From Candidatus Iainarchaeum sp. (lineage in GTDB: Archaea > Iainarchaeota > Iainarchaeia > Iainarchaeales > GCA-2688035): a stretch of DNA of 51,027 bases. Location of the stretch: contig JAFCCL010000010.1 of NCBI GenBank assembly GCA_017610205.1, positions 1 through 51,027 of the forward strand, given 5' to 3'. Positions 7,672 through 50,898 of the stretch are shown in pieces. Position 1 is the first letter of the stretch, and every line of letters starts with the position of its first letter. Both the position numbers and the translations under genes were made by a program. Under the pieces are notes generated by a model, which searched no databases, was not told the origin of the DNA, and saw only the letters and a program-made list of their open reading frames with translations.

Positions 7672-7770
7672 ATAGCCGCCACAGCCGACTGGTCTGAGCA
7701 AGAAGCCTATTTCGCTTGGATTCAATAGGCTGGCTTCGCTTTGTTTAACAAAAATTTGTTCAACTTGATT

Positions 7771-8145: not shown

Positions 8146-8265
8146 TAAAATAATAAAAGAACAAGATGTTTTTAAACAAAATGCAAAGCAATGAACTTTG
8201 AAGAAGCAGGCAAAAAAAAAGCGTTTTGAAAAGGATTAAATAAAAGGTTTATCTTAGTTTATTCA

Positions 8266-8448: not shown

Positions 8449-8450
8449 CA

Positions 8451-30958: not shown

Positions 30959-30986
30959 AGGCAATGATGAGGTTAACACCTGCTGA
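30959..30986 (+). repeat. array repeat A (28 bp) AGGCAATGATGAGGTTAACACCTGCTGA
   Basis: 27/28 identical to repeat F. Confidence 0.95.
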
Positions 30987-31081
30987 CCTAACGGAATGCT
31001 GAAGAACTCAATTTTGGGCCTATTGTTCTATTTGTGGAAAAAGGAAAACTTATTAAGTAACTAAATTTATAACTAGCCATA

Positions 31082-32293
31082 ATGAAAAATAAAAAATATG
31101 TTCCGGGAATTTTAGTGCTACTAATTATTGGGCTTGTTTTCATAAGTGGCTGCGTTCAGGAGGGAACAGAAACCGCGCCTCCTGTTCTTCCTGGAGCAGA
31201 GCCTCAGGAGGATAAACCAGAGGATTATATTGAACAAATGTCTGAATCTGAATTACAGGAATTGTGCGAAAGAGAGTCCTGGCCTCTGGAGTGTAGTATG
31301 GTTCCTGACACAAAAGGCAGAGAATTGTGCGAAAAATGCAAAGAACTAACGGGAGAAGGAACAAGAGAAGGAATAATAAAAGAAGAAGACATAACTCAGC
31401 TTACTTTTTTAGAAAATCTTGCTGCTGATCCATCTTGGAGCCCTGATGGAAGCCAAATAGTTTTTTTGGGTTTGGAGAAAAACTTGACGGAAGGCGGACT
31501 GTATACAATGAATGATGATGGAACCGGGATTACTAAAATTGCTGGCCAATGGGGACGCGACCATCTCTTCAATCCTTCCTGGAATCCGGTCAGCAATAAA
31601 ATCGCCTGCCATGGGCCCTCAAGTGGTCAGGGGCCAGGAGGCGAGGGATTGTTTTTAGTTGACTTGAGTGGAGATCAAACAAAAAGAGTCCAGCTAACTT
31701 CACAGAGAGTGGAGTATGTAGGTTGGAACCATGATGGAAAAAAGATCGCTTATAACGTCTATAGAGATTATGATTCTTCTTCAAATGAATACGAATCTTC
31801 TTCGATATGGGTGATGAATACTGACGGAAGCGGACAAACCCAGTTAACTACCACAGCGGATGGCTTTTGCGCTGGCCCGTCTTTCAGTTATGACGGCTCG
31901 AAGATTGTTTATCTAAAAGGATTTACTACTACAATGGGTGGGTTAAAGCCTGAGAAAGCAGTAAATGAGATTTGGGTCATGAATAGCGACGGCTCGAACA
32001 AACACATGATTTATGCGCCAGGGGAGGGCATGCAATTGGTAAGGGAGCGAGCTTGGAATAAGGATGATAAAATTGTATTTGCAAGACATCAACAGCGCAG
32101 AGCCCCTCAAATCTGGGTTATAAACTCTGACGGCACTAATCCTCAATGTATACTCGATCCTGAAGCAAGCGGTATTCCAACAGCTATTTATGATGACTTG
32201 GTTTGGGATAATAACGGAACAAAAGTAGCAGCCACCAAGGTAATAGTAAGCGATGAAAGCTGGCAAATATCTACCTTTTCTTGGGGAGGCTGA
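31082..32293 (+). CDS. lipoprotein with a TolB/PD40-like beta-propeller
   Basis: ISGC lipobox; PSWSPDG and IWVMN.DGS repeats. Confidence 0.88.
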   Translation: MKNKKYVPGILVLLIIGLVFISGCVQEGTETAPPVLPGAEPQEDKPEDYIEQMSESELQELCERESWPLECSMVPDTKGRELCEKCKELTGEGTREGIIKEEDITQLTFLENLAADPSWSPDGSQIVFLGLEKNLTEGGLYTMNDDGTGITKIAGQWGRDHLFNPSWNPVSNKIACHGPSSGQGPGGEGLFLVDLSGDQTKRVQLTSQRVEYVGWNHDGKKIAYNVYRDYDSSSNEYESSSIWVMNTDGSGQTQLTTTADGFCAGPSFSYDGSKIVYLKGFTTTMGGLKPEKAVNEIWVMNSDGSNKHMIYAPGEGMQLVRERAWNKDDKIVFARHQQRRAPQIWVINSDGTNPQCILDPEASGIPTAIYDDLVWDNNGTKVAATKVIVSDESWQISTFSWGG

Positions 32294-32351
32294 GCACTAC
32301 CTCATAAGAAAAGAATTAATAGTTGAATTATACTAATATTTCTACGATATT

Positions 32352-35300
32352 ATGAAAACAGCAAATATCGCCCTTGCAATTTTTGCTCTGGTTATCCTTT
32401 TATTTAGCGGCTGCGTTCAGGACTGGACAAAAACCTCGTCACCTACTTTGTCTGGAATAGAACCTCAAGAGGAAAAACCAGAGAACGGTATTGAACAAAT
32501 ACCTGAATCCGAGCTGTGGGAAATATGTAAAAGGGAGAACTGGCCTGCAGACTGCAGTGTTGTATCTGGCCTGCAAGACAGAAAATTGTGTGAAAAATGC
32601 AAAAAATTAACTGAAACAGAAATTCAAAAAGAAGCAGGAAATGGAACAGCAGCAAGAGGCGAAAATGATCTGCCAAAGTATTCTAAATCACAAGACTGGG
32701 AAATTCCAAGCGAAATGTTCGCAGAGATAAAGATGGATATGCCTGAAGGAGCAGATGTTAAAGGATATTGTGTTGAAGGAACTAGTGTTCAGGAAATGAT
32801 GAATTGGTACAAAAACCAAATAACAGGCTGGACATTAAAAAAAGAAAAGCCTGCTACAAAAATTCCTGAAACTGGAATAACAATAGGCATGCTAATCTAC
32901 CATAAAGACACTGAAGGTATTGGCATAACTGTACTAAGCGGAACAAAATTAAAAGGCACGTGTTACACTCTGGCTGCCGGGTCTTGGTCATTGTTTGAAA
33001 AAAATGGCAAAGGCGGGAAAGAACCAGAAAAAGAAAAGCCCGCTGAAAGCACCACTACAAAGCAAGTTGGAGAATGGAGCAAGACATTCGGAGGGACAGA
33101 AGCAGATTATGCATGGCTAGTTAAGCAAACATCTGACAAGGGGTATATCCTAGTAGGAGGAACGATTTCTTTTGGAGCAGGTGACCATGATGTATGGCTA
33201 ATTAAAACAGACAGCTCTGGAAATGAAGAATGGAACAAGACTTTTGGGGGAACAGATTATGATGATGCGCATTCTGTCCAGCAGACATCAGACGGAGGGT
33301 ATATTATTGCAGGAAGTACTGTTTGTTTTGGCGCTGGAAAGTATGATGCATGGGTAATCAAAACAGACGGCTCAGGCAATGAAGAATGGAGCAAAACATT
33401 TGGGGGAACAGAAGATGATTATGCATATTATGTTCAGCAGACATCTGATAGAGGTTATGTAATTGCAGGAGAAACATGGTCTTTTGGGGCTGGAGGAAAG
33501 GATGCATGGCTTATAAAAATAGACAGCTCGGGAAATGAGGAATGGAGCAAGACATTTGGAGGGAAAGATGGCGAATGGGTACAGTCAGTCCAGCAGACAT
33601 CTGATAAAGGTTATATTATTGCAGGAAATATAGCTTTTGATGAAACTGGTAATCATGATGTATTACTCATAAAAACTGATTCACATGGAAACGAAGAATG
33701 GACTAAGACATTTGGCGGAACAGGGGACGAAGAAGGAGAAAAAGTTCAGCAGACATCTGATGGGGGATATATTCTTGTAGGGGGGACAACTTCTTTTGGA
33801 AATGGAAGCTGGGATTTCTGGCTGGTAAAAACTGATTCAAAAGGGAACAAAGAGTGGAGCAAAACATTTGGAGGAACAGAAGCTGAAGGAGCGAAAGAAG
33901 TTCAGCAGACTTCGGATAAAGGGTATATTCTCACAGGAAAGACACGTTCTTTTGGAGCTAAAAGAGAGGATGGCTCCAGGGTTTGGAATGGATTGCTTGT
34001 AAAAACTGATTCAAGTGGAAATGAGGAATGGAGCAAAAATTTGGGGGGATTAGATGATGAGGAAATGTTTTCAGTTATCCAGATATCTGATGGAGGTTAT
34101 ATTGTTGCAGGAAAGACAAAATCTTTTAGTGATAATGAAAATTGGGATGTATGGCTTGTAAAATATGGGCCTGAAGAAAAGCACACTGTCGCGAGCCCAA
34201 CAAATAGAGCCCTTGCATCGTTGTCCATGACTTCATCCACTGACGGCTGGGCAGTAGGGGATGACGGAACAATAGTCAGATGGGATGGCTCTGCTTGGTC
34301 AACTGTTGCAAGCCCCACAGGAGAATTTCTCCATTCAGTTCATATGCTTTCACCCACTGACGGCTGGGCAGTAGGGTTAATATCACGCACTGGCGGATGG
34401 GCAATGGGAACTGGCGGAAGGATAATCAAATGGGATGGCTCTTCGTGGTCAATCGCTGCCGAGCCCATGACAAGTTCTCTTTACTCAATTTACATGCTTT
34501 CATCCACTGACGGCTGGGCAGTAGGAGAACATGGAACAATAGTCAAATGGAATGGTTCTTCGTGGTCAACTGTCAAAAGCCCTCCAGCGAATTCTTTTTA
34601 TTCGGTTTACATGCTTTCATCCACTGACGGCTGGGCAATGGGGTGGAATGGAGCGATAATCAGATGGAACGGCTCTACATGGTCAAGTGTCGCAAGCCCT
34701 ACAAAAAGTTCTCTCTTATCAGTCTACATGATCTCCTCTGATGAGGGTTGGGCAGTGGGAGTCAATGGAGCGATAATCAGATGGAACGGCTCTACATGGT
34801 CACTTGTTTCGAGCCCCACAAAAGGTTCCCTTGCATCTGTTTACATGCTCTCACCTACAGACGGATGGGCAGTAGGGTATGAAGGAACAATAATCAGGTG
34901 GGATGGTTCTTCATGGTCAAGCGTTGCGAGCCACACGACAAACTCTCTTTATTCTGTTCAGATGCTCTCACCTGCAAATGGCTGGGTAGTAGGGTTTGGC
35001 GGGAAGATAATTCCCATTCCTCCGGAAACCAATAGTCCGCCAGTTATTGAAAACCAAAAAACAGAAGAGCAGAGTAATCCAACGCATCTGGCAACTTTAA
35101 CACCAGCGCTTAGCTGGGACTATTATGATGCAGATAATGATGCTATGGAACAGTGCCAGATTCAAGTCGGCACCTCAAAAAGTGACAGCAGTTTATGGGA
35201 TTATGCCTTAACCAGACAACAAGAGTTAGAGGGAGCTGTGCACAATGAAGCCTTTGATGACTTGGATAACATTAATTTTTCAAACCCGGGCAAGGCGTCT

Positions 35301-35966
35301 GTAGAAATTGACCCGCCTGGCCAATTGCATTACAATGCTTTGGCAGGGGGCGAGAGTTGGGGCAATATTAAATGGCAGGGATGGGAAATACCTGAAGATT
35401 ATACTTTTGAGATTAAGACATATTTTGACCAGATTGGTGAAGGACAAATGTTTTACCATATTATCAATTCTGCTACGTTACAGTTTATACCAGGCTTTAA
35501 GAGAACTGGTTTAGTTGTGACCCAAGAGCATATAGAAGTGCCAAATCTTGATACTTTAAATTTAATTGTTCCCGGAGTTGTTAAATACGGGGCAAATGCC
35601 GAGTGGCAGACATGGAAATTTGTGGTTACTAGTGATACCTGGATGACTGCAAGTACTGATATTTATTTAACTGATTCAACGCACACTAACCAGTTAATGG
35701 CTGAAGATGTTCCATGCCCGGTTTCCCCAATTCCTGGTGGAGCCAAAGGACCTTTCATATCTTTTGAAACAAGCGGGAATACTGAAGTGCACATAGACTA
35801 CCTTAAATTATATTATGATTCGGGAGTAAAAACCGTGGAGTTAATTCCTAGCGTAACTTATAGCGGTTCTGAGCTATTGCAGGACACCACATACCACTGG
35901 CGGGTTAAGTGTTATGATGGATATGACTGGTCGGATTGGGCTTACGGAACATTCAAGGCTGAATAA
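32352..35966 (+). CDS. large multidomain surface lipoprotein (two repeat/propeller regions and an FN3-like C-terminus)
   Basis: FSGC lipobox; about 7 WSKTFGG...QQTSDGGYI repeats; about 7 SPT..L.SV.MLS.TDGWAVG repeats; ends YHWRVK.YDG..WSDW. Confidence 0.88.
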   Translation: MKTANIALAIFALVILLFSGCVQDWTKTSSPTLSGIEPQEEKPENGIEQIPESELWEICKRENWPADCSVVSGLQDRKLCEKCKKLTETEIQKEAGNGTAARGENDLPKYSKSQDWEIPSEMFAEIKMDMPEGADVKGYCVEGTSVQEMMNWYKNQITGWTLKKEKPATKIPETGITIGMLIYHKDTEGIGITVLSGTKLKGTCYTLAAGSWSLFEKNGKGGKEPEKEKPAESTTTKQVGEWSKTFGGTEADYAWLVKQTSDKGYILVGGTISFGAGDHDVWLIKTDSSGNEEWNKTFGGTDYDDAHSVQQTSDGGYIIAGSTVCFGAGKYDAWVIKTDGSGNEEWSKTFGGTEDDYAYYVQQTSDRGYVIAGETWSFGAGGKDAWLIKIDSSGNEEWSKTFGGKDGEWVQSVQQTSDKGYIIAGNIAFDETGNHDVLLIKTDSHGNEEWTKTFGGTGDEEGEKVQQTSDGGYILVGGTTSFGNGSWDFWLVKTDSKGNKEWSKTFGGTEAEGAKEVQQTSDKGYILTGKTRSFGAKREDGSRVWNGLLVKTDSSGNEEWSKNLGGLDDEEMFSVIQISDGGYIVAGKTKSFSDNENWDVWLVKYGPEEKHTVASPTNRALASLSMTSSTDGWAVGDDGTIVRWDGSAWSTVASPTGEFLHSVHMLSPTDGWAVGLISRTGGWAMGTGGRIIKWDGSSWSIAAEPMTSSLYSIYMLSSTDGWAVGEHGTIVKWNGSSWSTVKSPPANSFYSVYMLSSTDGWAMGWNGAIIRWNGSTWSSVASPTKSSLLSVYMISSDEGWAVGVNGAIIRWNGSTWSLVSSPTKGSLASVYMLSPTDGWAVGYEGTIIRWDGSSWSSVASHTTNSLYSVQMLSPANGWVVGFGGKIIPIPPETNSPPVIENQKTEEQSNPTHLATLTPALSWDYYDADNDAMEQCQIQVGTSKSDSSLWDYALTRQQELEGAVHNEAFDDLDNINFSNPGKASVEIDPPGQLHYNALAGGESWGNIKWQGWEIPEDYTFEIKTYFDQIGEGQMFYHIINSATLQFIPGFKRTGLVVTQEHIEVPNLDTLNLIVPGVVKYGANAEWQTWKFVVTSDTWMTASTDIYLTDSTHTNQLMAEDVPCPVSPIPGGAKGPFISFETSGNTEVHIDYLKLYYDSGVKTVELIPSVTYSGSELLQDTTYHWRVKCYDGYDWSDWAYGTFKAE

Positions 35967-36144
35967 AAGTATGCAATCAAAAAGGGTTTATAAAATTAAG
36001 TCCTGTTATTATATGATGAAAATAAAATCTGCTTCCCAAACCTTTAATAATTATAGTTTGTCTGACATAGAGCAATCACAGAGTCACATTTGGACTTAAC
36101 AGCAAACCAATAACATTTAAGCAATCATTGCCATTGGGTGCTAT

Positions 36145-36162
36145 AGGCAATGATGAGGTAAA
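36145..36162 (+). repeat. array repeat B AGGCAATGATGAGGTAAA
   Basis: 17/18 match to the core; intergenic. Confidence 0.93.
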
Positions 36163-36231
36163 TCACTATAGTGATGTATAGGGATTATAGTAATCTTTTT
36201 AAGGCACCCTCTACTTGCTTAGGTGTTAGCT

Positions 36232-37668
36232 TTATATTGATTGTTTGAAATCCTCAAGATCAAATGCTAAGAATCCTCTTTTCCTAAGTTTTTCTTTTCC
36301 CCTAATTTTTTTTGCAACCAAACCAAGCTTTAAGTTTGGAAGTTTTTTGTACAAATGACTTGTTTTCTTTTCAAGTTCGCTTAATGTGTTTATTGCTTCT
36401 TTATCTGTTAATTCACTCCACTTGAATTCAAAAGCAAAACTTTCTTTTCCCTTCTTTGCAATCAAATCAATTTCGTAAACATTTTCTCCTTTTTTCTTGC
36501 CTTGAATTTTTCCCCATTGCCGTTTAGCTTCCTTTAAATCTAATTCTTTTATTAAAAATTCTTTTGCAACTTCTTCAAAGGCTTTACCATAAACTGTATT
36601 CAAATTGCCCTTCAGTTTTTCCACAAACTCGTATTTCCTCGAAACATAATCAGAATAGTTTTTGTAAATCTCTGAAAACCAGTAGTGCATTAATGGGTGT
36701 TTAACTTTGTATATGCCTCTTTTTCCTTCAAAAGGCATTTCAAATTCAATTAACTCAAAGTAATCCTTTAACTCTTTAATCTGTCTAGTGATTGAAGTGG
36801 GTCTTGTATTTAAAGTGCTTGCAATTAGTGACGAGGTGTTGTTTCCATTAGCAATTGCTTCAAGGATAGAGTAGTATACCCCGCTTCTTCCGCCAAATTC
36901 TTGGGAAAGAATACTATTAACCTCGTCCTCTAACGGCGCGTTTCTTACAAACAAAAGAGAATTAAGGATTTCTTCTGCTTTTTTCGTTTGCAAACCAAAG
37001 TCTTCAATTGCAACAAAATACTTGGGGTAGCCGCCAAAAATACAATAAATTTTTATCAGGTCTTCTTTGCTTAACTTTAGTTCCTTGCCTAACTCCAAAC
37101 AGGAGCTAAAACTTAAGGGCTCAAGCTTGGAACCTCTTTTGATTCTTCCGTACAACGGTTCTTTGGAACTCCTAAACAAATTCTTTATCAGACCAATCAA
37201 TGAACCAGAAAGAATAATCAAACCAGGCCTGTTCTCATTCAAATCAATATATTTTTGCATTATGCCAAAAATAGCTGGATCTACAAAACTAAAATTCTGG
37301 AACTCGTCAAAAACAACAGGAGGTGCTTTTCTTGTCATCAGTATTTCAAAAAATTCATCCCAAGAATTAAGTTTCTCTAATTTTCCGACTATCCCATTTA
37401 TTCTCATTATTTCTTGAAATTCATTGAGTAAATCAGCAGAAGTTTTGTTTTTATTGACAAAAAAATATAGCCCATCTTTTCCATAGCCCTGCCCTGAACC
37501 ATCACTAAATCCCTGCCCAGAACCAACTATGCGAAGAAACTCAAGCAAGAGCCTAGTTTTTCCGACTCTCCTTAAACCAAACAAAGCAATGACAAAAAGC
37601 TTTTTCCTAGAGAGATTTCCAAGCTCTTGTAATTCTTTTAATTCAGCAGACCTATCAACAAACCTCAA
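36232..37668 (-). CDS. archaeal ATPase with a wHTH and a C-terminal DUF234-like PD-(D/E)XK domain
   Basis: FVDR..EL, GLRRVGKT (Walker A), FDEFQ (Walker B), PLYGR, GGYP.Y, EIDLIA...FEFKW. Confidence 0.9.
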   Translation of the reverse strand: MRFVDRSAELKELQELGNLSRKKLFVIALFGLRRVGKTRLLLEFLRIVGSGQGFSDGSGQGYGKDGLYFFVNKNKTSADLLNEFQEIMRINGIVGKLEKLNSWDEFFEILMTRKAPPVVFDEFQNFSFVDPAIFGIMQKYIDLNENRPGLIILSGSLIGLIKNLFRSSKEPLYGRIKRGSKLEPLSFSSCLELGKELKLSKEDLIKIYCIFGGYPKYFVAIEDFGLQTKKAEEILNSLLFVRNAPLEDEVNSILSQEFGGRSGVYYSILEAIANGNNTSSLIASTLNTRPTSITRQIKELKDYFELIEFEMPFEGKRGIYKVKHPLMHYWFSEIYKNYSDYVSRKYEFVEKLKGNLNTVYGKAFEEVAKEFLIKELDLKEAKRQWGKIQGKKKGENVYEIDLIAKKGKESFAFEFKWSELTDKEAINTLSELEKKTSHLYKKLPNLKLGLVAKKIRGKEKLRKRGFLAFDLEDFKQSI

Positions 37669-37906
37669 ATATATTCACCTACTGAATAATTCAATAACTG
37701 AATATCTATTTAAAAGCATTGTTTGGCCGAAAATCGGCCACATTATCTTTTAATGCCATTAACACCCATTTGCAACAGCAATGACGAATCTTATGTCTGG
37801 TTTTTGAAAAAAGAACGAAGTCAGGGCTTATTTTGTTTGGAAACACAAGGAATATAAAAAATAGTACGAGCAATACTTTTAACATATAATCTCTGAACAT
37901 CTCTGT

Positions 37907-37924
37907 AGGCAATGATGAGGTTAA
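37907..37924 (+). repeat. array repeat C AGGCAATGATGAGGTTAA
   Basis: Exact core; also shares about 30 bp of upstream sequence with repeat F. Confidence 0.95.
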
Positions 37925-38012
37925 GACAATTAAATGATATAGGTAATTGATATTTTTTCTTCAACCACTTTTGTACCAAAATTTATTTATTATTTAAAGG
38001 ATAAATATGTTT

Positions 38013-38269
38013 ATGGTAATTAAAAAATTGCTTTGGTTTCATTTGTTGTTTTGTTGGTTCTTTTTAGCGGCTGTTTGCAGAATGTTAGAGCCCCTAATCC
38101 AGAGCTTTGTGATAAGGTATCCCAACAAAGCAGTAAAGATGTTTGTTACCACAGAACTGCCTTGGCCACGGGCGACGATATTTTATGCAGCAAAATCGTT
38201 GAATTGAATGAAAGAGACGACTGTTATATTGATTTGGCGGTTGGAAGAACCAGCTATTTCATTGATTAG
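38013..38269 (+). CDS. small Cys-repeat lipoprotein, apparently frameshifted in an A6 run near the start
   Basis: FSGC lipobox and C..I.....D.CY repeats; ATG 38013 is one base out of frame. Confidence 0.6.
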
Positions 38270-38277
38270 GTGGAAAA

Positions 38278-38817
38278 ATGCCTTTAACGCCGTTTCATCT
38301 CGGGCCTGCTTTGTTTTTTGGATTATTGTTTTTTAGGCTAATTAACTTGCCTGCTTTTTTGATTGCCAACGTTGTTGTTGATATTGAACCTTTCTTGATT
38401 TTATTCTTAGGTTTAGATTTACCTTTGCATGGTTTTTTTCATTCCTTTTTAGGTGGCTCTATAATCGTAATCATTCTTTCCCTTGCAATGATTAAAATGG
38501 ATAAACCAGTTCAGAAAATAATGTCCGCTTTTAAACTTGGGCAAAAATATTCCAAAAGAAGCATTTGGCTTGCATCGTTTTCAGGAATTTACTTGCATAT
38601 CCTGCTTGATTCCATACTCTATACTGATATTAAACCATTCTTTCCATTGAATGTCAACCCATTTTATAACAGCTCAATGTTTGCCGGGTTTGAAATATAC
38701 AGCCTCTGTGTAATCTTGTTTATTTTAGGGCTTGCATTATATGCCTACAAAGCACTGAAACAGCGAATACAAAATCCAATCAATAACATTAAATCATTTA
38801 TCTTCTATATTGTCTAA
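38278..38817 (+). CDS. membrane-bound metal-dependent hydrolase (DUF4184/YdjM-like)
   Basis: MPLTPFH, D.EP, LHGFFHS, HILLDS....DIKPF.P. Confidence 0.85.
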   Translation: MPLTPFHLGPALFFGLLFFRLINLPAFLIANVVVDIEPFLILFLGLDLPLHGFFHSFLGGSIIVIILSLAMIKMDKPVQKIMSAFKLGQKYSKRSIWLASFSGIYLHILLDSILYTDIKPFFPLNVNPFYNSSMFAGFEIYSLCVILFILGLALYAYKALKQRIQNPINNIKSFIFYIV

Positions 38818-38818
38818 C

Positions 38819-38836
38819 AGGCAATGATGAGGTTAA
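38819..38836 (+). repeat. array repeat D AGGCAATGATGAGGTTAA
   Basis: Exact core, 1 bp after the upstream stop codon. Confidence 0.95.
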
Positions 38837-38885
38837 CGACAAAAGCACAATATAGAAGATGTAGCTATTTTAAGAAAAAGTTCTT

Positions 38886-40100
38886 TTATTTACCTAAGTG
38901 TTTTTCGAAGAGATCGAGCCAGTTAAGCACCAGTCTTGTTATCAAGAAATTGTTTTTTACATGCTCTTTTCCATTTTTTCCAAGCTCATTTCTCAGTTTT
39001 TCGTCTTTCAGAATTTTTATTACGCTCTTGCTAAAGCACTTGGTTTCATTTGGCTTGTGCAAAAACCCATTTATGCCATCAATTACTTGAAGTGGAATCC
39101 CCCCAACGTTGGAAGCAACGACAGGTGTTCCTTTGTATAATGCTTCGCTTACAGTTAACCCAAAGCCCTCCCTTTTGGATTTCTGGACGACAACTGAGGA
39201 TGCCCGCTGAACACAATTAACAAGGAAATCGTTTGCAACTGAAATCAGCCTAATGTCCTTGCTGTATCTGCTTTCTTTTGTTCTTTTTTCAAGTTTTTCA
39301 AAGAGTTTTTGGCCCTCGGGATCATCTAAGGCAAACTCGCCAAGCAGAACCAGCTGGCAGTCCAGCTTGCTCCTAACCTGTTCAAAGACCTTTACAACAC
39401 CAATTGGGTCCTTCCACTTGTCAAACCTTGATATTTGTGAAATAATTGGCTTGTTCAGGTCTATTCCGTATTTGCTTGTATACTTTCTAATTACTTCTCC
39501 ACTTGTAGTCTTGTTTTTTGCGCTCAATGGGTCTATGGCTGGCCAGATAACACTTTGAGGAATTTTTAAACGCTTCTTGTATTCGTTTTTTGATACAACA
39601 AAGTGGTCATATTTTTTAAGGAAAGTTTTTAAGTAATCCCAGACTTGGGTATTTGGGTTGGTTAGGTCAATATGACACCTGAAAATCCAGGGCTGCTTCT
39701 TTTTATAAAAGGAAATCAATGGCAAAGGCTGGGGGTCATGCACTATAACCAAGTCATGGTCTAGGTGATTAAAGCTTGAAAAGCGCTTGTTTGTTTCAAA
39801 ATAAATCTCCTTTTTTCTTTTTGAGAGGTTTATGTTCGCTCCCTGCAAGGCATTGTGAAACTTCTTTGTAATTGTAAAGAAGTCCGGCGTCCCATGCAAA
39901 ATCCGCCAGCCCAAATCTATTCCAATTTCGTTGAACAAAATCACAGTGCTGTTGAGCAGCTCTGCAACCCCACCACCCTGATACGTGGAATTTATGAAAA
40001 CAATGTGCTTGTTTGCCAATCTTTCCGCTTTGTTGTGAATACTTTCAATGGCTTCTTTTCCGGCAATCTTTTCATATTTTTTCAGGTTCGGCATGTTCAT
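38886..40100 (-). CDS. treT: trehalose glycosyltransferring synthase (TreT-like GT4)
   Basis: INST..GGGVAELL, HDPQP, W..RCHID, SRFD.WKDP, EGFGLTVSEA. Confidence 0.85.
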   Translation of the reverse strand: MNMPNLKKYEKIAGKEAIESIHNKAERLANKHIVFINSTYQGGGVAELLNSTVILFNEIGIDLGWRILHGTPDFFTITKKFHNALQGANINLSKRKKEIYFETNKRFSSFNHLDHDLVIVHDPQPLPLISFYKKKQPWIFRCHIDLTNPNTQVWDYLKTFLKKYDHFVVSKNEYKKRLKIPQSVIWPAIDPLSAKNKTTSGEVIRKYTSKYGIDLNKPIISQISRFDKWKDPIGVVKVFEQVRSKLDCQLVLLGEFALDDPEGQKLFEKLEKRTKESRYSKDIRLISVANDFLVNCVQRASSVVVQKSKREGFGLTVSEALYKGTPVVASNVGGIPLQVIDGINGFLHKPNETKCFSKSVIKILKDEKLRNELGKNGKEHVKNNFLITRLVLNWLDLFEKHLGK

Positions 40101-40146
40101 ATTATTTGGTGATGGTTGTTTATAAACATTTAGACTCTGGAAGCAT

Positions 40147-42147
40147 CTATTCTTTCAATTTTTCCAAAACTTCTCGTACGCCTTCTGTCGCTGGCTTGGC
40201 TGTTACCTGGTTTGCCAACCTTTTAAGTTTTTTGGTGGCATTTGCTAGGGCAATCTTGAAGCCTGGGTTCAAGAACATGTCTTCGTCGTTTTCTCCGTCT
40301 CCAATCAAAACAGTCTTTTCAAGGTCTATATCCAAATACCTCATCACAAGCCTTAGCCCAAGACCCTTGTCAACACCTGTGGGAAGCACCATGGTCTCGT
40401 CCACGTTCTTGATAAAATTCAGGTCTTTGGCAAGCTTTCCAAGCGTCCTCTTTACCAAGCTCTCGTCATTTGCACGCACACTCGCTATAACCTCGCCTAA
40501 AGTGGTTCCCTGAAGCTTAAGTGCCCTTATCATTTCCCTTGCTTTTCTCATATGCTCTGTATTGATTACTATTGTTTTTTTTGTTAGAGGAAAATAGAGC
40601 ACTGCTCCGTTCTCTGCAACCACGCCTGCCCAGCACTTGAATTTCTTGCACATGTCTCTAACAAAGCCAATGCTTCTGCCTGTTGCAAGAAACAAGGGCA
40701 CATTCAAGCTTTTCAATTCATTCAGTAGCTTGGAATCAAAGTCTGTTGGGTCAAATCTTCGTTTGCATGGCTTGTCAGTTATAGTTCTGTCTAGGTCAAC
40801 AACAATTGCCCTGATATCTGACAGGTCAAGGTATTCAATCCTATGAAATTCGTCTTTGATTCTCTTAATCGAGTTGTAAAGCATCAGGTGCCTTTCAACA
40901 CCGTTCTCAATCTTAAAGTTTTTGTCAACCAGTTCAAGGGACTTTTTTGACATCTTTTCGCTCAGTGATTCCCCTCGCAAGAACTTAAATATGCTTGCAT
41001 CGCCTTTTATAATCTTAACAATACTTCTGGCAGTGGCCTTTATGTCACCAACATCAACTAAAAAACCATTCTCGCCATCCTTTATCTGGATAGGGATGCC
41101 GCCTACCTTTGTTCCCACTACTGGCTTGCCGCAGGCCATGCCCTCAGTTATTGCCAAGCCAAAACCCTCATTCTTTGAACACAATGCTACGACATCAGCG
41201 CTGTTGTACAACTCTGGCAAAATGTGGTAGTCAATGGTGCCTGTCCAAAACACACTATTCTCCATACCAAGGTCTTTTATTAAATTTAACACTTTTTGCT
41301 TCAAAGCCTGCCTGCTTTTTGAAAGCTTGTTGCTCATCGAGTTGCCGCCAACAAAAACAAGCTTTGCATTAGGCACTTCTTTGATTATTTTAGGCATTGC
41401 TTTAATTAGCTGTTCATGGCCTGATTTTGGGTCAACTCTTTGAACGCTAAGAATAATCCTTGAATTTGCAGGGATTTTGTATTTCCGCTTCACAACAGCC
41501 TTGTTTATGTCCATTTTCTTAAAGAGGTTAGTGTTAGCAATAGGGTATATCAGCTCAGTTTTTTCTCTTGGAAGGCCAAGCTTTACAGCTACCTCTATGT
41601 AATCTTGGGACGAAAAAACGACCTTGTCATATTCCTTAAGGTGTTTTATTAAAAACTTGGCCAGGTGTTTTGACATGTTTTCTATAAATGGAATGTGCCA
41701 AGTTAGGATGCAGGGCATGCCCCTTGGCACATACTTGTAAGTAAACAGAAGTTGGAAATCATGGATATGCACTACATCAGCAGGTTGTTGCTCAAGCAAT
41801 TCTCGCAACTCTTCGCCAAAGTACTCGTTAACCTTGTTGTACTCTTCAAAGCCTTCAATCTTATCAGGGGGCTTGTCAAATTCCTTCACATTGTAGTGGC
41901 ATTCCTTATAAACGGTTTCCTTGAATAGGCTGTATCCCTTCATTATTTCAAAATCAATGGGTTCCCTTGGAACCCGGTGTATTTCGATGCCTCTAATCTC
42001 GTCCTCGTAATCTTCCTCGGCAAGCCTTAAATGCACCTCAACAACTTCATTGCCGTTCTTTTTCATCTCTTTCGCAAGGTTCAAAAGGTATGTGGAAACT
42101 CCGCCGATATGCGGATAAAAAGACTGACTTGCGTAATAGATTTTCAT
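40147..42147 (-). CDS. GT4 glycosyltransferase fused to a C-terminal HAD-IIB phosphatase
   Basis: GGVSTY, HIHDFQ and EGFGLAITE in the GT part; DLDRT, ATGR, ENG, K and IGDGEND in the HAD part; start at ATG 42147. Confidence 0.88.
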   Translation of the reverse strand: MKIYYASQSFYPHIGGVSTYLLNLAKEMKKNGNEVVEVHLRLAEEDYEDEIRGIEIHRVPREPIDFEIMKGYSLFKETVYKECHYNVKEFDKPPDKIEGFEEYNKVNEYFGEELRELLEQQPADVVHIHDFQLLFTYKYVPRGMPCILTWHIPFIENMSKHLAKFLIKHLKEYDKVVFSSQDYIEVAVKLGLPREKTELIYPIANTNLFKKMDINKAVVKRKYKIPANSRIILSVQRVDPKSGHEQLIKAMPKIIKEVPNAKLVFVGGNSMSNKLSKSRQALKQKVLNLIKDLGMENSVFWTGTIDYHILPELYNSADVVALCSKNEGFGLAITEGMACGKPVVGTKVGGIPIQIKDGENGFLVDVGDIKATARSIVKIIKGDASIFKFLRGESLSEKMSKKSLELVDKNFKIENGVERHLMLYNSIKRIKDEFHRIEYLDLSDIRAIVVDLDRTITDKPCKRRFDPTDFDSKLLNELKSLNVPLFLATGRSIGFVRDMCKKFKCWAGVVAENGAVLYFPLTKKTIVINTEHMRKAREMIRALKLQGTTLGEVIASVRANDESLVKRTLGKLAKDLNFIKNVDETMVLPTGVDKGLGLRLVMRYLDIDLEKTVLIGDGENDEDMFLNPGFKIALANATKKLKRLANQVTAKPATEGVREVLEKLKE

Positions 42148-42290
42148 CCAGTCGCCTCTACGACTGCAAAAACAGTATGCGCAACTACACAAATAGAATC
42201 TGAGTCAGGATCATCACCTTCATCTGAATCTGAAATTTCCAACCAAAAACCCCGCTTAATTCTACTCTATTAACGAATTCTTTATAAGTA

Positions 42291-42776
42291 TTACGCCATT
42301 GCACATTTAATTTGCTCGGACAATGCAGGTTTAAGAATTTGGCTTTCACAAGTTTGCGTTCTTTCATTTGCCTTTAATCTATTATAAACTATCCCTGCGT
42401 ACTTTTCTGCTTTATCTGCTGAAGGCATTTCTATTTCGGAAACAAGTATTATGGCTGCAAAAATGTTTCTTGCAACAAAAGACAGTTTTAGGTAATAGCG
42501 GTCTTCTTCTTTGTATTTAAGAATGAAGTCTTTTTCTCCAAATTTATTTAATTTTGATATTTCTGCATCTTCATAATATTTTTATTCAACTAACCTTTTT
42601 TCAGCTCTAAAAGACCTGTTAAACCTTTCGCTTGGAACGAGACTTAACCCTAAGTCTTGTTGCCCAGTGGTAATAGGTAGTGGCTTCTCCAAAGCGCACA
42701 AAACAGAGTCATACGAAACTACCATTTGTTCGCCAAGAACTTTTTTGCTAAAGCTTATTTGGTAGCTTTTTACATT
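42291..42776 (-). pseudogene. decayed gene, about 160 codons with an internal TAA and no start
   Basis: Hand translation NVKSYQISF...KRLVE*KYYEDAEISKLNKFGEKDF...AEKYAGIVYNRLK...; one in-frame TAA at 42582-42584. Confidence 0.55.
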
Positions 42777-42827
42777 TTAGGGGGCATCGGAAGGTTTAAA
42801 TGGGGGGGGTTATCGCCTACGTTTTTT

Positions 42828-42845
42828 AGGCAATGGCGAGGTTAT
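42828..42845 (+). repeat. array repeat E (degenerate) AGGCAATGGCGAGGTTAT
   Basis: 15/18 match; intergenic, at the junction between divergent modules. Confidence 0.75.
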
Positions 42846-42953
42846 TGTCGGAAAAAGCATAAGGAATGACACTAATTTAAGTTCCCTAAATGCCTCCTAA
42901 GGTGAATAGGGCATGAATAGACGAGCTTTTAAACGGTACATTCTCAGCGATTG

Positions 42954-42986
42954 CTGAACCTCGCCGCACTAAAGTGCGGGGCTTCC
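42954..42986 (-). mobile_element. orphan IS200/IS605-type right-end hairpin
   Basis: Minus strand GGAAGCCCCGCAC-TTTA-GTGCGGCGAGGTTCAG; same GAAG-hairpin-TCA layout as the tnpB right end. Confidence 0.6.
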
Positions 42987-43317
42987 CAACCCAAAAATGC
43001 AACAGAAAAGCAGAAGCAGTAGTCAAAAAAATCAAATACTTTCTAAACAAGTTTGGAACCCAAAACATTGAACACGCAAACCAGCTACTTGAATTGTTCC
43101 AAAAACAGTACAACAACAGGCTATAGTTAAGATTAAACCATTTTTCGTTCAACTAACTATATAGTGACAAGCAAAAAAACGGGGTTATATGCGTTATCAC
43201 ATAACAACTAAGGAAGATGAGAAGGAAAGAGGACTAAACATACTTTAAGGGTAAAGCATTTAGCCCGCCTTTTTTTTAACATTATAAAGAGTTTCATAAG
43301 GATGGATGTGAAGAAGA

Positions 43318-44523
43318 ATGAAAAGGATGTCAACTAAAATGGGAAAAGATAAAGGTATGAAACAAGATAAAATGATAAACGTTTTGCTGGTGGCAACCCT
43401 TAATCGACCGGTCAGGTCAGATCTTGGTTATGCCCCTATAGAAACGGTCATTTATAATATTGATAAAGGACTTCATAATTTAGGTCACCATTCGATTGTT
43501 GCCTGTTCAGGTGATTCCAAAGTTACCGGCGAACAATTAGTGACTGTCAAGCGAAGCTTTGGTGGGTACTGGAGTGAGGATACTCCAGAAAAGCGTAAAA
43601 GCATACGTTTGCACCTTTTTAAGGCATTGGAAAGGGCAGGTAAGGGTGACATCGACATAATCCACTTGCATGATGCAGCAATGGTAGAGTGTATTTATAA
43701 GGGGGTATTCAAAAGCCCGGTTCCAATCGTGATGACCCTACATGTCCCCGCTCAAGACAGGGGATCTTTCAAGCAGTGGTCTAAATCATTGACATCTTCT
43801 TCCAGGGTGTATTTTGTCCCGATAAGCAAATATCAAAAAAGGCAGCATTATGGCTTAGCAAATACCATGAACGTTATCCATCATGGAATTGATGTGGAAA
43901 ACTACCCGTTTAAAAGTGAGATGGACAAAGAAAGCTATCTGTTTACTATCGGCAGAATAACTAAAGTCAAAGGACAGGATATAGCCATAAAAGTTGCAAG
44001 AAAAACAGGTTCTAAACTTATTATAGCTGGTAATGTTCAGAACAAAGCGAAAGATAGAAAGTTTTTTGAAAAATTAAAAAAGTCTATTGACCTATGTGTT
44101 GAGGCAGGCAAATACCCTGCTGATAATGATTATTATGAGAAGGTAATGAAACCATTATTGGACTGTGACAAACAGATTATCTACATCGGAGAAATCAGTA
44201 GAGAGCAAAATAAATTATGGTATCTGCATGCCCGGGCTACTTTATTCCCCATTCAATGGGGTGAACCATTTGGACTTGTAATGATCGAGTCAATGGCGTG
44301 CGGTACACCAATTTTGGCATTTAGAAAAGGTTCTGTCACAGAGATTGTGGTAGAAGGGAAAACAGGATTTGTCGTAGACTCCATTGGTGGTATGATTGAA
44401 GCAGTAAAACATATTGATAGTATCGATCCTTGTGTATGTCGGAAATACGTTCAGGATAATTTCTCTGTAATAAGTATGGCTCAAAAGTATTCAAAATTGT
44501 ATCAAAAGATTCTAGGATCCTAA
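43318..44523 (+). CDS. GT4 glycosyltransferase (start uncertain)
   Basis: GY.PIE, TLH, HHGID, GRI..VKG, W.EPFGLVMIESMACGTP. Confidence 0.92.
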   Translation: MKRMSTKMGKDKGMKQDKMINVLLVATLNRPVRSDLGYAPIETVIYNIDKGLHNLGHHSIVACSGDSKVTGEQLVTVKRSFGGYWSEDTPEKRKSIRLHLFKALERAGKGDIDIIHLHDAAMVECIYKGVFKSPVPIVMTLHVPAQDRGSFKQWSKSLTSSSRVYFVPISKYQKRQHYGLANTMNVIHHGIDVENYPFKSEMDKESYLFTIGRITKVKGQDIAIKVARKTGSKLIIAGNVQNKAKDRKFFEKLKKSIDLCVEAGKYPADNDYYEKVMKPLLDCDKQIIYIGEISREQNKLWYLHARATLFPIQWGEPFGLVMIESMACGTPILAFRKGSVTEIVVEGKTGFVVDSIGGMIEAVKHIDSIDPCVCRKYVQDNFSVISMAQKYSKLYQKILGS

Positions 44524-44639
44524 TAATAGGATGTTCCGGTGGAGGAGTATATGAAGTCATACAGAATGATATTAATGGCTACCTAACTGCCCAAGATGAT
44601 TCTGTGGAATTAACAAAAAAGATGGGTGCATTAAAATAG
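44520..44639 (+). pseudogene. orphan C-terminal fragment of another GT4 glycosyltransferase
   Basis: LIIGCSGGGVYEVIQNDINGYLTAQDDSVELTKKM matches the GT4 pattern P.I....GG..E.I....NG.L....D...L. Confidence 0.6.
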
Positions 44640-44674
44640 CAACTTTTATTAAGGTATTCACTCTGTTAGAACAT

Positions 44675-45751
44675 ATGGTTTCAAAAGAAAGAATAAAATC
44701 ACTTTGGGAAACGAGTAAAAAAGTTATTTTGGACTGCTCACTTGAAAATGGTGCAATTGTTGCTGCTAACTCTGATAAGTCTTATTACCCAAAAGATGCT
44801 TATAATTATAGATATATTTGGCCTAGAGATGCGGGCTATATCTGTGTAGCTGCACAAGAAGCAGGCATTGACACCATACAAAAGCCATTTTTCGATTGGG
44901 TACTAGAAAGATCTGAAGGTTTCAAGGAGACCAATCTTCTTTACCAAAACTATTCAACAAATGGAACAAAATTTTGGTTGAGTTTTCAACCAGACCAAAA
45001 TGGCACAATGCTTTGGGCAATTTATAAGTTCTTTGAGAAAAAAAAGATACCAAAAAAATATGTCACGCTTATAAAAAAACTCGCAAATGGATTATGCAAT
45101 ATATGGGACAAAACTCATTTTACAAAAAAGACCCAGGGTTTGTGGGAATACTATTACTGTTACCCTGATTTAGATGAGAACCATACTTATTCCTTGGCAG
45201 CTTGCGCTCAAGGCCTTAATCTAGCAAATAAGCTTATAACTAACAAGAGATGGGAAATTGTTTCAAAGCAAATGGTAAAGCAAATCCAACAAAGATATGC
45301 TCAAAAACTCAATTATTTTACAAGGACAACAGGAAAGATCAAGCTTCTAAAAATTGATGCATCGCTAATAGGTTTAGTATATCCTTTTGATATTGTAAAA
45401 CCTAACGATGAAAGAATGATTAAGACAATTGAGATTATGGAAGCTAAAATTATGGTCAAGACTGGCCTATTGAGGTATGAATATGACACTTATGATGCTT
45501 GGGCAATTGAAGGTGGTTACAGAGGAAAGGGAGCAGGAAGTTGGCCTTTGCTCAATTTCTGGTTGGCAATTTATTATTATCAATCTGGAAACAAAAAGAG
45601 CGCTTTGTCATTGTATAATAAAACATTAAAACAATTTGAAGATTACATACCTGAACAAGTTTTTGATAACGATATACAACAAACAGTAAAACCTTTAGCT
45701 TGGGCACATGCAATGTTTATTCTTGCCACAAAAGAGTTGGGTTTAATATAA
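44675..45751 (+). CDS. GH15-like glucoamylase/trehalase
   Basis: GAIVAA, Y.YIWPRDA, Q.DQ, LWE, DAS, RYE.D.Y, PEQ, PLAWAHA. Confidence 0.88.
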   Translation: MVSKERIKSLWETSKKVILDCSLENGAIVAANSDKSYYPKDAYNYRYIWPRDAGYICVAAQEAGIDTIQKPFFDWVLERSEGFKETNLLYQNYSTNGTKFWLSFQPDQNGTMLWAIYKFFEKKKIPKKYVTLIKKLANGLCNIWDKTHFTKKTQGLWEYYYCYPDLDENHTYSLAACAQGLNLANKLITNKRWEIVSKQMVKQIQQRYAQKLNYFTRTTGKIKLLKIDASLIGLVYPFDIVKPNDERMIKTIEIMEAKIMVKTGLLRYEYDTYDAWAIEGGYRGKGAGSWPLLNFWLAIYYYQSGNKKSALSLYNKTLKQFEDYIPEQVFDNDIQQTVKPLAWAHAMFILATKELGLI

Positions 45752-45964
45752 GTTCGAGTACGTCTTTGCTCCTTATTACATTCCTGAAACTAAGCTCGTC
45801 ACTCTCAATCTTATGTCTTGTATTTTGGTCAGTATTATTGTAAGCAAGCATCATTTATTGGACTGTACCCCTAAACGGGACAACTGGTTAAAGCAATATG
45901 TATTTCTGGCCATTTTTCCCTCAAAAAACATTAATTTTAACATATAATCTCTATACATGTCTGT

Positions 45965-45992
45965 AGGCAATGATGAGGTTAACGCCTGCTGA
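45965..45992 (+). repeat. array repeat F (28 bp) AGGCAATGATGAGGTTAACGCCTGCTGA
   Basis: 27/28 identical to repeat A. Confidence 0.95.
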
Positions 45993-46021
45993 AGCAAATG
46001 TAGATAGTCAAACTACGTTCT
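45965..46021 (+). ncRNA. candidate C/D-box-like small RNA (terminal box D not evident)
   Basis: Box C ATGATGA, 12 nt, CTGA, C'-like ATGTAGA, then AGTCAAACTAC; TATAAT about 20 bp upstream. Confidence 0.3.
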
Positions 46022-46087
46022 TTTAATGCGCATTAAACGGATGCTATTTATATACTTTAATGTGGATTTATTGTGTATGGTGATTGT

Positions 46088-46324
46088 ATGAATGCTGACC
46101 TTGGTGTGCCCTATGAGGCAATTTTAAAGAAGGCAATTGAAAGAGGTTATGCCGGAAACCAGACAGAAGTTGTCAGGCAGGCTTTGCTCAATTACGAGAG
46201 AATGATTGACGAAGAAGAAAAAGAACTTGTTGCCAAAGCTATTAAAATAGAAATGGGCGAAGTAAAAGCAGGAAAAATCAAAACAAAATCCTTTAGTGAA
46301 GTCAAGAAAAAATTCAAGTGGTAA
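46088..46324 (+). CDS. putative antitoxin (RHH-like)
   Basis: G.Y..N..EVVR.AL pattern; C-terminal GKIKTKSFSEVKK; translationally adjacent to the toxin. Confidence 0.7.
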   Translation: MNADLGVPYEAILKKAIERGYAGNQTEVVRQALLNYERMIDEEEKELVAKAIKIEMGEVKAGKIKTKSFSEVKKKFKW

Positions 46325-46325
46325 A

Positions 46326-46586
46326 ATGAAAATACAGATTCTTGAAACCGCTGAAAAAGAACTTGAAAAAATAGCCAACCCCTTAAACAAACAATTCGGG
46401 AAACATATTGAAAAAATCGCCTCAAAAGAAACCAATAGACACCTGAAAAGTGGTTTGCCTTACTTCACTGAAAATGTTACAAAACAGGCAAGACTTATCT
46501 GCTATATTAAGGAAGAAACTATTTATGCGCTGCATTGCTTTGCAGGCCACAAAGAATACAAAAGATGGTACAGGTCATTTAAGTAA
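46326..46586 (+). CDS. putative RelE/ParE-like toxin
   Basis: A.KELEK, H...G, RLI......IY......H..Y; about 86 aa, basic, downstream of the antitoxin. Confidence 0.65.
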   Translation: MKIQILETAEKELEKIANPLNKQFGKHIEKIASKETNRHLKSGLPYFTENVTKQARLICYIKEETIYALHCFAGHKEYKRWYRSFK

Positions 46587-46666
46587 GAAACCAATAACTT
46601 CTACATAACGAATTGTTGTTTTCCTTAAAATCTTTTCTTATTAGAAATGTTTTGAGGAGAATTATT

Positions 46667-50547: not shown

Positions 50548-50609
50548 AGTTCCCAAAAATAATGGCAATGCAAAGTTTTTAAAAAATGCTTCAACATTAT
50601 TATTTATGT

Positions 50610-50898
<289 letters not shown>

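Follow-up and report, generated by a model that had tools for sequence, protein, structure and literature searches.

The front end of a C/D box guide RNA gene probably bounds exchangeable gene cassettes in Candidatus Iainarchaeum

The stretch analyzed here, hereafter the window, comprises 51,027 nt of contig JAFCCL010000010.1 from the Candidatus Iainarchaeum sp. assembly GCA_017610205.1. It contains a variable island lying between a gene for an MBL-fold protein, with a GGGP synthase gene also present on this left flank, and the RPA gene, with RadA also present on the right flank. The island is punctuated by a short repeated site, or core, of 14-18 nt (GGCAATGATGAGGT(TAAC)), which covers three elements of a C/D box small RNA (sRNA), namely its terminal stem, its box C and the beginning of its D' guide. 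When the 18-mer AGGCAATGATGAGGTTAA was searched in the window with up to three mismatches, six matches were obtained, all on the + strand, against 0.08 expected. These copies, designated A to F, start at positions 30959, 36145, 37907, 38819, 42828 and 45965. The 27-mer running from the core through the CTGA of box D' occurred twice in the window (0.00 expected). Copies A and F extend past the core through box D', and direct repeats matching at 27 of 28 nt stand at both ends of the island. In copies B, C and D the sequence shared with the sRNA is limited to 14-18 nt, and copy E has a degenerate core. In the whole assembly (designated G000; 1.37 Mb, 24 contigs, 92% complete), GGCAATGATGAGGT was found exactly ten times, together with one single-mismatch copy. 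Allowing A or G at position 4 added two further single-mismatch matches, located in coding sequence and devoid of a promoter, which were taken as chance and excluded. The features of the locus, including two overlapping open reading frames (ORFs) behind copy F, are the following.

30249-30917, - strand: MBL-fold gene, left flank
30959..46589, no strand: variable island, with five core-bounded cassettes and a two-ORF cassette behind copy F
30959..31020, + strand: copy A, a full-length decayed sRNA paralog, made of GGCA, box C (30964-30970), D' guide GGTTAACACCTG (30971-30982) and D' CTGA (30983-30986), followed by a 3' half with a loop, a C'-like ATGCTGA, the D-guide remnant AGAACTCAATT, TTGG replacing box D, and GCC
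36145..36200, + strand: copy B, an 18-nt core with one mismatch, preceded by a TATA-like promoter
37871..37961, + strand: copy C, a U1-type promoter (37871-37906) and an exact core (37907-37924)
38800..38860, + strand: copy D module, an exact core (38819-38836) inside a perfect 14-bp inverted repeat with arms ATCTTCTATATTGT (38800-38813) and ACAATATAGAAGAT (38847-38860)
42828..42895, + strand: copy E, the degenerate core AGGCAATGGCGAGGTTAT with three mismatches, upstream of a GT4/GH15 cassette
45929..45964, + strand: promoter-like stretch of copy F, U1-type, including a TATA-like TTTTAACATATAA some 30 nt ahead of the core
45965..46024, + strand: copy F, with GGCA, box C, D' guide, D' CTGA, then an eroded 3' half
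46022..46586, + strand: two-ORF cassette, with overlapping small ORFs at 46073-46324 and 46296-46586
46613-47965: RPA gene, right flank

Copy B has a body unrelated to that of the other copies and a T-run at its end, and is located between two convergent genes; the sequence CAATCATTGCC, found upstream of it, is the inverse of the core start. In copy C, the core is likewise followed by an unrelated body and a T-run, upstream of a YdjM-like gene cassette, and its promoter and core region is 91% identical over 54 nt to positions 45929-45982 of copy F. In copy E, the altered position of box C lets the 5' end fold into a hairpin.

An intact dual-guide C/D box sRNA is encoded at position 112859 of contig C10, another contig of the same assembly. 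It reads GGCA ATGATGA GGTTAACACCTG CTGA CCGAAAGGA ATGACGA TTAACTCAACT CTGA GCC, i.e., a 12-nt guide, a short hairpin loop between D' and C', and an 11-nt D guide. The 23-mer from box C to D', searched with up to three mismatches, was present in 32 of the 41 genomes of the order, distributed over 19 families, and the reversed 23-mer used as control gave no match in the same 41 genomes. Twenty-two distinct full-length copies of this sRNA were gathered, and 21 of them were aligned with copies A and F of the window. Among the 22, box D is CTGA in 20, CAGA in one and CCGA in one, while box C is ATGAAGA in two; D' (CTGA, CCGA or CAGA) stands 12 nt past box C, C' is ATGA(C/G/T)GA-like, and the D guide measures 11-12 nt. 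As RNAalifold returned just three pairs on the sRNA alignment (-1.3 kcal/mol), the terminal stem of 3-4 bp was then tested directly: 89.8% of its cells are paired, three of the four pairs show changes on both sides, and its covariation score of 0.231 exceeded that of 500 out of 500 shuffles and of all slid controls. The partner proteins are encoded in the genome as well, namely fibrillarin (267 bits), Nop5 (228 bits) and a protein of the L7Ae family (88.7 bits). Given this sequence pattern, the covarying stem, these proteins and the targets described below, the parent RNA displays the features of a C/D box sRNA, and we are confident that the core represents the 5' end of a real gene for a methylation-guide RNA of the C/D box type. 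An earlier note on this DNA, made from its letters only, had recognized in the repeated site the 5' half of a C/D box small RNA; the intact canonical molecule found elsewhere in the genome and in relatives, with its boxes conserved to the extent given above, bears this out.

In its boxes C, D', C' and D, its 11-12-nt guides and its covarying terminal stem, the parent RNA is comparable to the known archaeal dual-guide box C/D sRNAs, and its guides, like theirs, fit 23S ribosomal RNA (rRNA) helices around the peptidyl-transferase centre. Unlike them, it matches no Rfam family above cut-off: the nearest models are all C/D families, every one below threshold, the best being sR1 (RF01152) with 22.6 bits for a cut-off of 45. 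A further difference is that stand-alone modules have arisen by multiplication of its 5' end. The parent is an ordinary type of molecule and a new member of the archaeal C/D sRNAs, of which two or three canonical ones, itself included, are detectable in the 1.37-Mb genome. The scan of the window at Rfam gathering thresholds yielded only the signal recognition particle RNA and three tRNAs; the former (50606-50883, 137.6 bits, archaeal type) makes the opposite-strand ORF at 50600-50881 spurious. When a 17-mer was scanned against one genome per species, 107 stretches were obtained. Among the 80 of these 107 that were listed, about half were archaeal, mostly from Candidatus Iainarchaeum (DPANN), and the remaining ones were bacterial, had no GGCR prefix and were consistent with chance.

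Neither 23S nor 16S rRNA is assembled in the bin of the organism, and targets were scored on the 23S of four relatives (G003, which belongs to the same genus, G009, G028 and G030) standing in for its own rRNA. The guide scan covered four 23S, four 16S and the 37 tRNAs of the genome, with 200 shuffled guides as control. The D' guide pairs with CAGGTGTTAACT or GAGGTGTTAACT in the 23S of three of the four relatives, and the D guide with AGTTGGGTTAA, located 29 nt downstream of the D' target, also in three of the four; these scores were equalled by 1 and 12 of the 200 shuffled guides, respectively. In the fourth relative, G028, the D target is unchanged and the D' target has a G at the methylated position, which is mirrored by a matching C at that guide position in the sRNA of G028 itself, i.e., a compensatory change between guide and target. 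The methylated position is set by the fifth pair upstream of D or D'. According to this rule, methylation by the D' guide falls on the U of GAGG-U-GUUAAC, which we take from the alignment to be U2552 of the A-loop (E. coli numbering), and methylation by the D guide falls on the first G of GGG in AGUU-G-GGUUAA, presumably close to G2581 of the peptidyl-transferase ring. The intact sRNA is thus predicted to guide 2'-O-methylation at two neighbouring sites of 23S domain V. In bacteria, A-loop methylation is made by a protein enzyme. Here, a clean and conserved guide for this modification is available, and guide-target covariation makes the methylation predictable in the ribosomes of uncultured DPANN archaea. 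A review (PMC7994747) describes A-loop positions equivalent to U2552 and/or G2553 as always modified, and places a hot spot of guided methylation in helices 90-93.

Copies A and F are decayed full-length paralogs of this sRNA without box D. Direct reading of copy F recovered what the earlier note had described there, i.e., box C ATGATGA at 45970-45976, the 12 nt GGTTAACGCCTG at 45977-45988, CTGA at 45989-45992, ATGTAGA at 45998-46004 and AGTCAAACTAC at 46006-46016, with no terminal CTGA afterwards (GTTC, then TTTT), and copy A has the identical layout (box C 30964-30970, 12 nt, CTGA 30983-30986). Copy A aligns over its full length to the 21 full sRNAs, with TTGG at the box D position, and the best target match of its D-guide remnant was equalled by 80 of 200 shuffled guides. 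Copy F matches the same 21 copies through D' and only loosely beyond. It has GTTC at the box D position and no 3' partner for GGC, hence neither box D nor terminal stem, and its 3' half aligns to an eroded D guide, in agreement with the decay that had been suspected. Its D' guide carries an A>G change at the position specifying methylation, so that a G stands opposite the target U. In copy F a small hairpin, in which the ATGTAGA and AGTCAAACTAC pieces pair with each other, is followed by a T-run. In the relative G006, a full sRNA precedes the same two-ORF cassette as is found behind copy F. When both were placed side by side, ATGTAGA of copy F fell at the place of C' (ATGAGGA) and AGTCAAACTAC at the place of the D guide CAAACTCAACC. 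Therefore, the apparent second guide of copy F was read as an eroded D guide, and AGTCAAACTAC is best read, from this alignment, as a remnant of the D guide CAAACTCAAC.

It had been proposed instead that AGTCAAACTAC is complementary to the stretch just before the 23S P-loop, in which case copy F would be a functional, if non-canonical, guide RNA whose second guide targets this region. In copy F, box C, the 12-nt spacer and CTGA are all preserved between an upstream promoter-like stretch and a downstream T-run, and the 11-mer is one position off the P-loop-proximal sequence of G028. However, the complementarity fails in the 23S of the relatives and is no better than that of shuffled guides. In G003, of the same genus, the site is GCGGTTGGACT, with which the 11-mer forms eight Watson-Crick pairs, one G.U pair and two mismatches; the stretch given in the earlier note differs at three positions in G030 and at one in G028, and the site was not located in the 23S of G009. 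As to the 12-mer of copy F, its best match in the guide scan lies in one distant relative and comprises 10 Watson-Crick pairs and one G.U out of 12; of the 200 shuffled guides, 28 did equally well. The loss of both box D and terminal stem, the G opposite the target U, and the alignment of the stretch to the decayed D guide of the parent, followed by the cassette that is also found in G006, also argue against a live guide, which we consider very improbable. We are confident that copy F does not represent a new guide but a decayed paralog, and it is probably not a working guide. Copy F is the right-hand junction of the island and would once have been a full-length sRNA copy.

The flanks of the island were then compared between genomes. 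The distance between the MBL and RPA sides is about 15.6-15.7 kb in the window, as against 139 nt in G003, 195 nt in G006 and 4.7 kb in G005; in G004, it amounts to 44 nt according to the ends of the BLAST blocks, and direct reading gave a solo-core remnant of about 52 nt. The site is empty in G003 and G006, where AAAAAGGA is joined to TTAACTT/TTACTT and no sRNA sequence is present, while it holds a solo core in G004 and three cores with other genes between them in G005. Since the empty site is devoid of sRNA sequence, the sRNA pieces arrived with the inserted DNA. Of the idea in the earlier note that a guide RNA gene could be the integration target, what is supported in outline is that the copies mark the borders of inserted DNA; a resident target gene at this locus is not supported, as the empty site holds no sRNA gene.

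According to Pfam, the cargo of the window cassettes includes PD40-type and repeat-rich surface proteins, an archaeal ATPase, a YdjM-like membrane protein, glycosyltransferases resembling TreT and sucrose-phosphate synthase (SPS), GT4, a GH15 enzyme and the two-ORF pair. The cassettes consist of 0.9-5 kb of ordinary cargo, with several genes in both orientations. One of these genes (32352-35966) encodes a secreted or surface protein of 1,204 aa and contains internal tandem-repeat series of 156 nt and 117 nt. The two-ORF cassette is toxin-antitoxin-like by its layout only, with weak Pfam matches of the ParD/RHH type (E 0.026). It is also found behind a degenerate core in G004 and behind the full sRNA in G006, where it lies between this sRNA and a duplicate of the last 16 nt of the latter.

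Cassette order was found to vary between relatives. In G004, the YdjM cassette is directly followed by GT4/GH15 and the TreT/SPS cassette stands behind GH15, which is the reverse of the order in the window; the block ends between both sequences are at 38789/38837, 42987 and 45892. Similarly, the cassettes designated X, H and T precede the sRNA (S) in the order X, H, T on contig C10, vs T, H, X in G003, and the blocks shared by these two start exactly at cores. The T cassette (C10:111590-112880), which encodes two small DNA-binding-type proteins (SinI/NikA-like and a DUF7343 winged helix), is 98.7% identical to that of G003 over 1,291 nt, vs 65-89% for its neighbours. Such a difference points to a probable recent transfer of this cassette. 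Among DNA contigs from four runs of other metagenomes, compared at 85% likeness, one of 5.1 kb joins position 42316 to 45942, a second one connects 45993 with 38884 through 25 other letters, and many lose similarity at 38819/38837/38860 and 45960/45983/45992, although such joints may stem from other organisms or from repeats. All 23 genomes of the family carry cores, with 1-14 matches each, for a reversed control of three matches in total and an estimate of at most about one chance match per genome. In 22 of the 24 contigs of these genomes with at least two matches, all cores are on one strand. When the 31-mer of copy D was scanned against metagenomes, a single contig (L193) was retrieved, with three same-strand cores and a cargo that is methyltransferase or toxin-like, without recombinase. 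From these comparisons, the cores are likely where cassettes are joined and exchanged.

Additional observations were made at other cores of the genome. At C2:2189-8967 (locus L048), a lonB-like gene appears to be split by a larger insertion: its N-terminal AAA part (~C2:2215-2811) and its C-terminal part (~7669-8927) are about 4.9 kb apart here. In G003 the two parts are contiguous, with 8 nt between them, and in most of the 22 other genomes of the family they adjoin each other on a single contig. Among the contents of the insert is a cassette bounded by cores, which encodes an AAA ATPase and an aspartate decarboxylase. The search of relatives for an attB of this C2 cassette did not yield a simple empty site. 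A multi-copy stretch of about 180 nt (C2:3202-3392) also has many matches of 71-85% identity, both in this genome and among those listed for the rest of the family. Finally, at C13:116819-121462, a full-length sRNA copy with TTGA replacing box D overlaps the end of a RIO-type kinase ORF and is followed by defence-type genes (AbiEii-like, SWIM zinc finger, HNH nuclease), which extend as far as the next core, where the contig ends.

What precedes and follows the cores was investigated on 52 core units from the genome and from the arrays of its relatives, taken from 55 matches after two coding matches and one unit cut by a contig end had been left out. Information is high only in the core, with a sharp drop upstream of -1 and a gradual decay after +18, core positions 0-13 having been selected by the search. 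A TTTAAG-like signal of 0.8-1.1 bits is found at -31 to -26 before the core, and the tRNA genes of the genome have TTTAAA-type boxes. Because of this promoter-like peak and of the sharp edge at -1, each copy looks like a transcription unit that would start at or just before GGC. The upstream 35-45 nt belong to a few types which recur across genera and even families, the U1-type stretch being also present before cores in G005 and G040, and the upstream and downstream halves of the units occur in re-assorted combinations. The downstream bodies are unrelated among copies, and their RNA folds no better than shuffles (z from -1.0 to +1.5, with -0.5 for copy B and +1.5 for copy C). T-runs lie 45-60 nt downstream of the core in copies B, C, D and F, and a same-strand gene follows 8 of the 12 cores of the genome with readable downstream sequence.

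A second conserved type of unit was observed in at least nine genomes, consisting of the core, a GAAAA-rich sequence, AGGTGTTA(C/G)CAC and a T-run (C13:121462 and loci L061, L062, L063, L065, L072, L073 and L074). Its AGGTGTTA(C/G)CAC motif, which is the inverse of the D' guide, is similar to the A-loop target in 23S. Besides, a core unit stands upstream of the rpS15 gene both in this genome (C19:368) and in G005 (L070:974). The downstream flank is common to these two units, while the upstream flank and the inner sequence differ, and the terminal stem is kept by compensating changes (GGCAA/TTGCC vs GGCGAT/ATCGCC). In G005, the unit may be a single-guide half-mer made of box C, a guide and CTGA, with a 6-bp closing stem.

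Several of these features would be expected if the truncated core units were working small RNAs or 5' leaders starting with box C, the 14-18 nt being kept by selection on the RNA, whose box C could serve as a binding site for L7Ae, as a decoy or as protection of the 5' end. Breakpoints at cores would then result incidentally from short-homology recombination, the cores being the sole shared sequence. The TATA-like signal at a fixed distance in the 52 units, the T-runs of copies B, C, D and F, the same-strand genes behind 8 of 12 cores, the second unit type ending with AGGTGTTA(C/G)CAC and a T-run, and the compensating stem changes at rpS15 all speak in favour of such RNAs. However, a C/D kink-turn needs box D or a partner GA besides box C, and the truncated units, lacking them, cannot form it; their folds do not exceed shuffles and their bodies are unrelated. 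Moreover, RNA function alone leaves unexplained the one-strand arrays, the cassette of 98.7% identity and the empty sister site. It is the main rival to reading the cores as junctions, the two being not exclusive, and as an explanation in its own right we consider it rather unlikely.

The inverted repeat of copy D was examined for its generality. When the DNA of four window modules was folded on both strands, only copy D surpassed shuffles (z of -2.5 and -2.1 on the two strands), the others ranging from -1.5 to +1.5. The arms of copy D recur at the two ends of single cassettes on contig C2 (13 of 14) and on contig L193 (14), and the next cassette of L193 has a different inverted-repeat pair of 17 nt. 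Inverted repeats with at least 10 matches were found at the ends of 4 of 25 cassettes, vs 1.9 after permutation, a value equalled by about 10% of the permutations. Around the units themselves, such repeats were found in 2 of 52 cases (copy D, with a perfect 14 bp, and one G003 unit, with 12 bp), vs 1.7 with permuted partners. A general inverted repeat around every core is not supported on this basis. Hence some cassettes have subterminal inverted repeats just inside the cores, the generality of this arrangement being marginal.

Same-strand repeated sites separating cassettes, toxin-antitoxin-like genes included, are reminiscent of integrons, in which case the present arrays would be attC arrays without a nearby integrase (CALIN). 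The core site of attC has the motif GTTRRRY, which the conserved core does not fit. The repeated sites are made of a promoter and an sRNA 5' end instead of imperfect palindromes, only one of four modules folding beyond shuffles, and the cassettes have several genes in both orientations. No tyrosine recombinase was found at the arrays, the IntI-specific extra domain not being part of the search. Integrons have been reported in Archaea, most of those described being arrays without intI (Ghaly et al. 2022, PMC9668308), and as in those systems, sites are on the same strand and cassettes are reordered, gained and lost. Unlike them, however, the cores carry promoters and derive from a guide RNA gene, and neither attC structure nor IntI was found. 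We therefore give almost no credence to an integron origin.

Taken as a whole, the best explanation is that the repeated site is the front end of a guide RNA gene which has been copied with its promoter and bounds gene cassettes, to which we assign a probability of roughly 70%. This rests on the identity, conservation and targets of the sRNA, the promoter signal, the empty site, and a cassette exchange with breakpoints at or beside the cores; from these we infer the recombination step, its enzyme and the transcription of the copies. The front end, always behind a TATA-type promoter, would have been copied repeatedly in one orientation at cassette borders. The right end of a DNA segment would bear the promoter and the sRNA 5' end. 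Recombination with a copy already in place would occur within the core common to both, so that each insertion would leave one more core. Later recombination between cores would allow cassettes to be lost, gained from relatives or reordered, and the leftover promoters would read into the next cassette or make short box-C RNAs. The agent of exchange could be a site-specific enzyme acting in trans, or simply recombination on the short identical core.

Several observations weigh against this explanation. No recombinase was identified by Pfam among the 44 ORFs around all cores of the genome, whose five tyrosine-recombinase matches are on other contigs and not at the arrays, two of them adjoining tRNA-Arg and tRNA-Ser. 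A tblastn search of 362 kb around the cores of relatives with four of these five (the pseudogene being left out) gave one weak match (E 6e-4), and neither a serine recombinase nor an IS110 transposase was found in the genome. Likewise, no viral contig with the 18-mer core was obtained. The left copy A also has a 3' half and the full copy of C13 is on the left, while a simple model predicts the intact sRNA at the right end of the array, as is the case on C10 and not in the window or on C13. The H|X junction of G003 has no core, and the block ends at 42316/45942 and 42987 lie beside cores and not inside them. The promoter is kept by every copy, although it is needless for a mere scar, and fits RNA function equally. 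All genomes are moreover metagenome bins, in which repeats break contigs. A further candidate, IS200/IS605 elements (Y1, inserting 3' of TTAAC), was tried and rejected: the ends and flanks of the elements at seven Y1 matches are unlike the cores.

The same searches bear on whether integrase-bearing elements integrated into a resident guide RNA gene, duplicating an attP-borne part each time. The 27/28-nt direct repeats bounding the island, the re-assorted halves of the units, as attL/attR hybrids would be, the position of the G006 two-ORF cassette between the full sRNA and the duplicate of its last 16 nt, and the integrase elements hosted by this genome at tRNA-Arg and tRNA-Ser are all consistent with such a history. 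Yet no integrase was found within or next to any array examined, the empty MBL|RPA site of G003 and G006 has no sRNA gene to serve as attB, the cassettes are ordinary cargo of 0.9-5 kb in both orientations, and the core is on no viral contig. Such elements are an unlikely source of the arrays.

With regard to precedents, integrating elements leave arrays of partial tRNA genes, and islands of the tycheposon type are present in marine cyanobacteria. Partial-tRNA-gene arrays are, by analogy, the closest analogue in outcome to copied front ends bounding cassettes, with a conserved small-RNA gene as repeated junction, cargo accumulated between partial copies in one orientation and an empty site in relatives. 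They differ in that the piece repeated here is a 5' end with its promoter and not a tRNA 3' end, that no integrase was found, and that no resident RNA gene pre-existed at the locus of the window. For the spread of the sRNA itself, the nearest precedent is provided by the sRNA elements of Pyrobaculum calidifontis resembling miniature inverted-repeat transposable elements (MITE), as presented by Lui et al. (2018, PMC6009581): multi-copy sRNA-like units in unstable, non-syntenic regions, many of them too degenerate to act as guides, with inverted repeats flanking an sRNA-like core, as here at copy D. Those elements keep the C and D boxes, are gene-less and were observed in one species, whereas the present units retain only the 5' 14-28 nt and the promoter, bound gene cassettes, and occur in all 23 family genomes searched and in other families of the order. 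A full-text literature search did not turn up any paper in which a C/D sRNA gene is presented as the place of attachment or of cassette junction.

More tentatively, and with a probability well below that of the border reading itself, these DPANN archaea may run a dedicated and hitherto undescribed cassette-exchange system at the promoter and 5' end of the A-loop guide RNA gene, with an integron-like outcome reached without IntI or attC and an enzyme acting in trans. The subterminal inverted repeats of some cassettes could be the binding sites of this enzyme. Because a kinship of Nop5 with IS110 recombinases has been reported (10.1101/2024.06.21.599552), the box-C RNAs themselves might take part in the exchange.

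The front end of a guide RNA gene is probably a recurrent cassette border across a whole family of archaea with tiny genomes. Surface proteins, glycosyltransferases, toxin-antitoxin-like pairs and defence-type genes make up part of what these exchangeable cassettes transport. If a specific mechanism is at work, it would represent a new way for reduced genomes to trade accessory genes, and a concrete, testable case for the suspected mobility of archaeal C/D sRNA genes. If only short-homology recombination is involved, conserved guide RNAs would still anchor genomic islands, as tRNA genes do.

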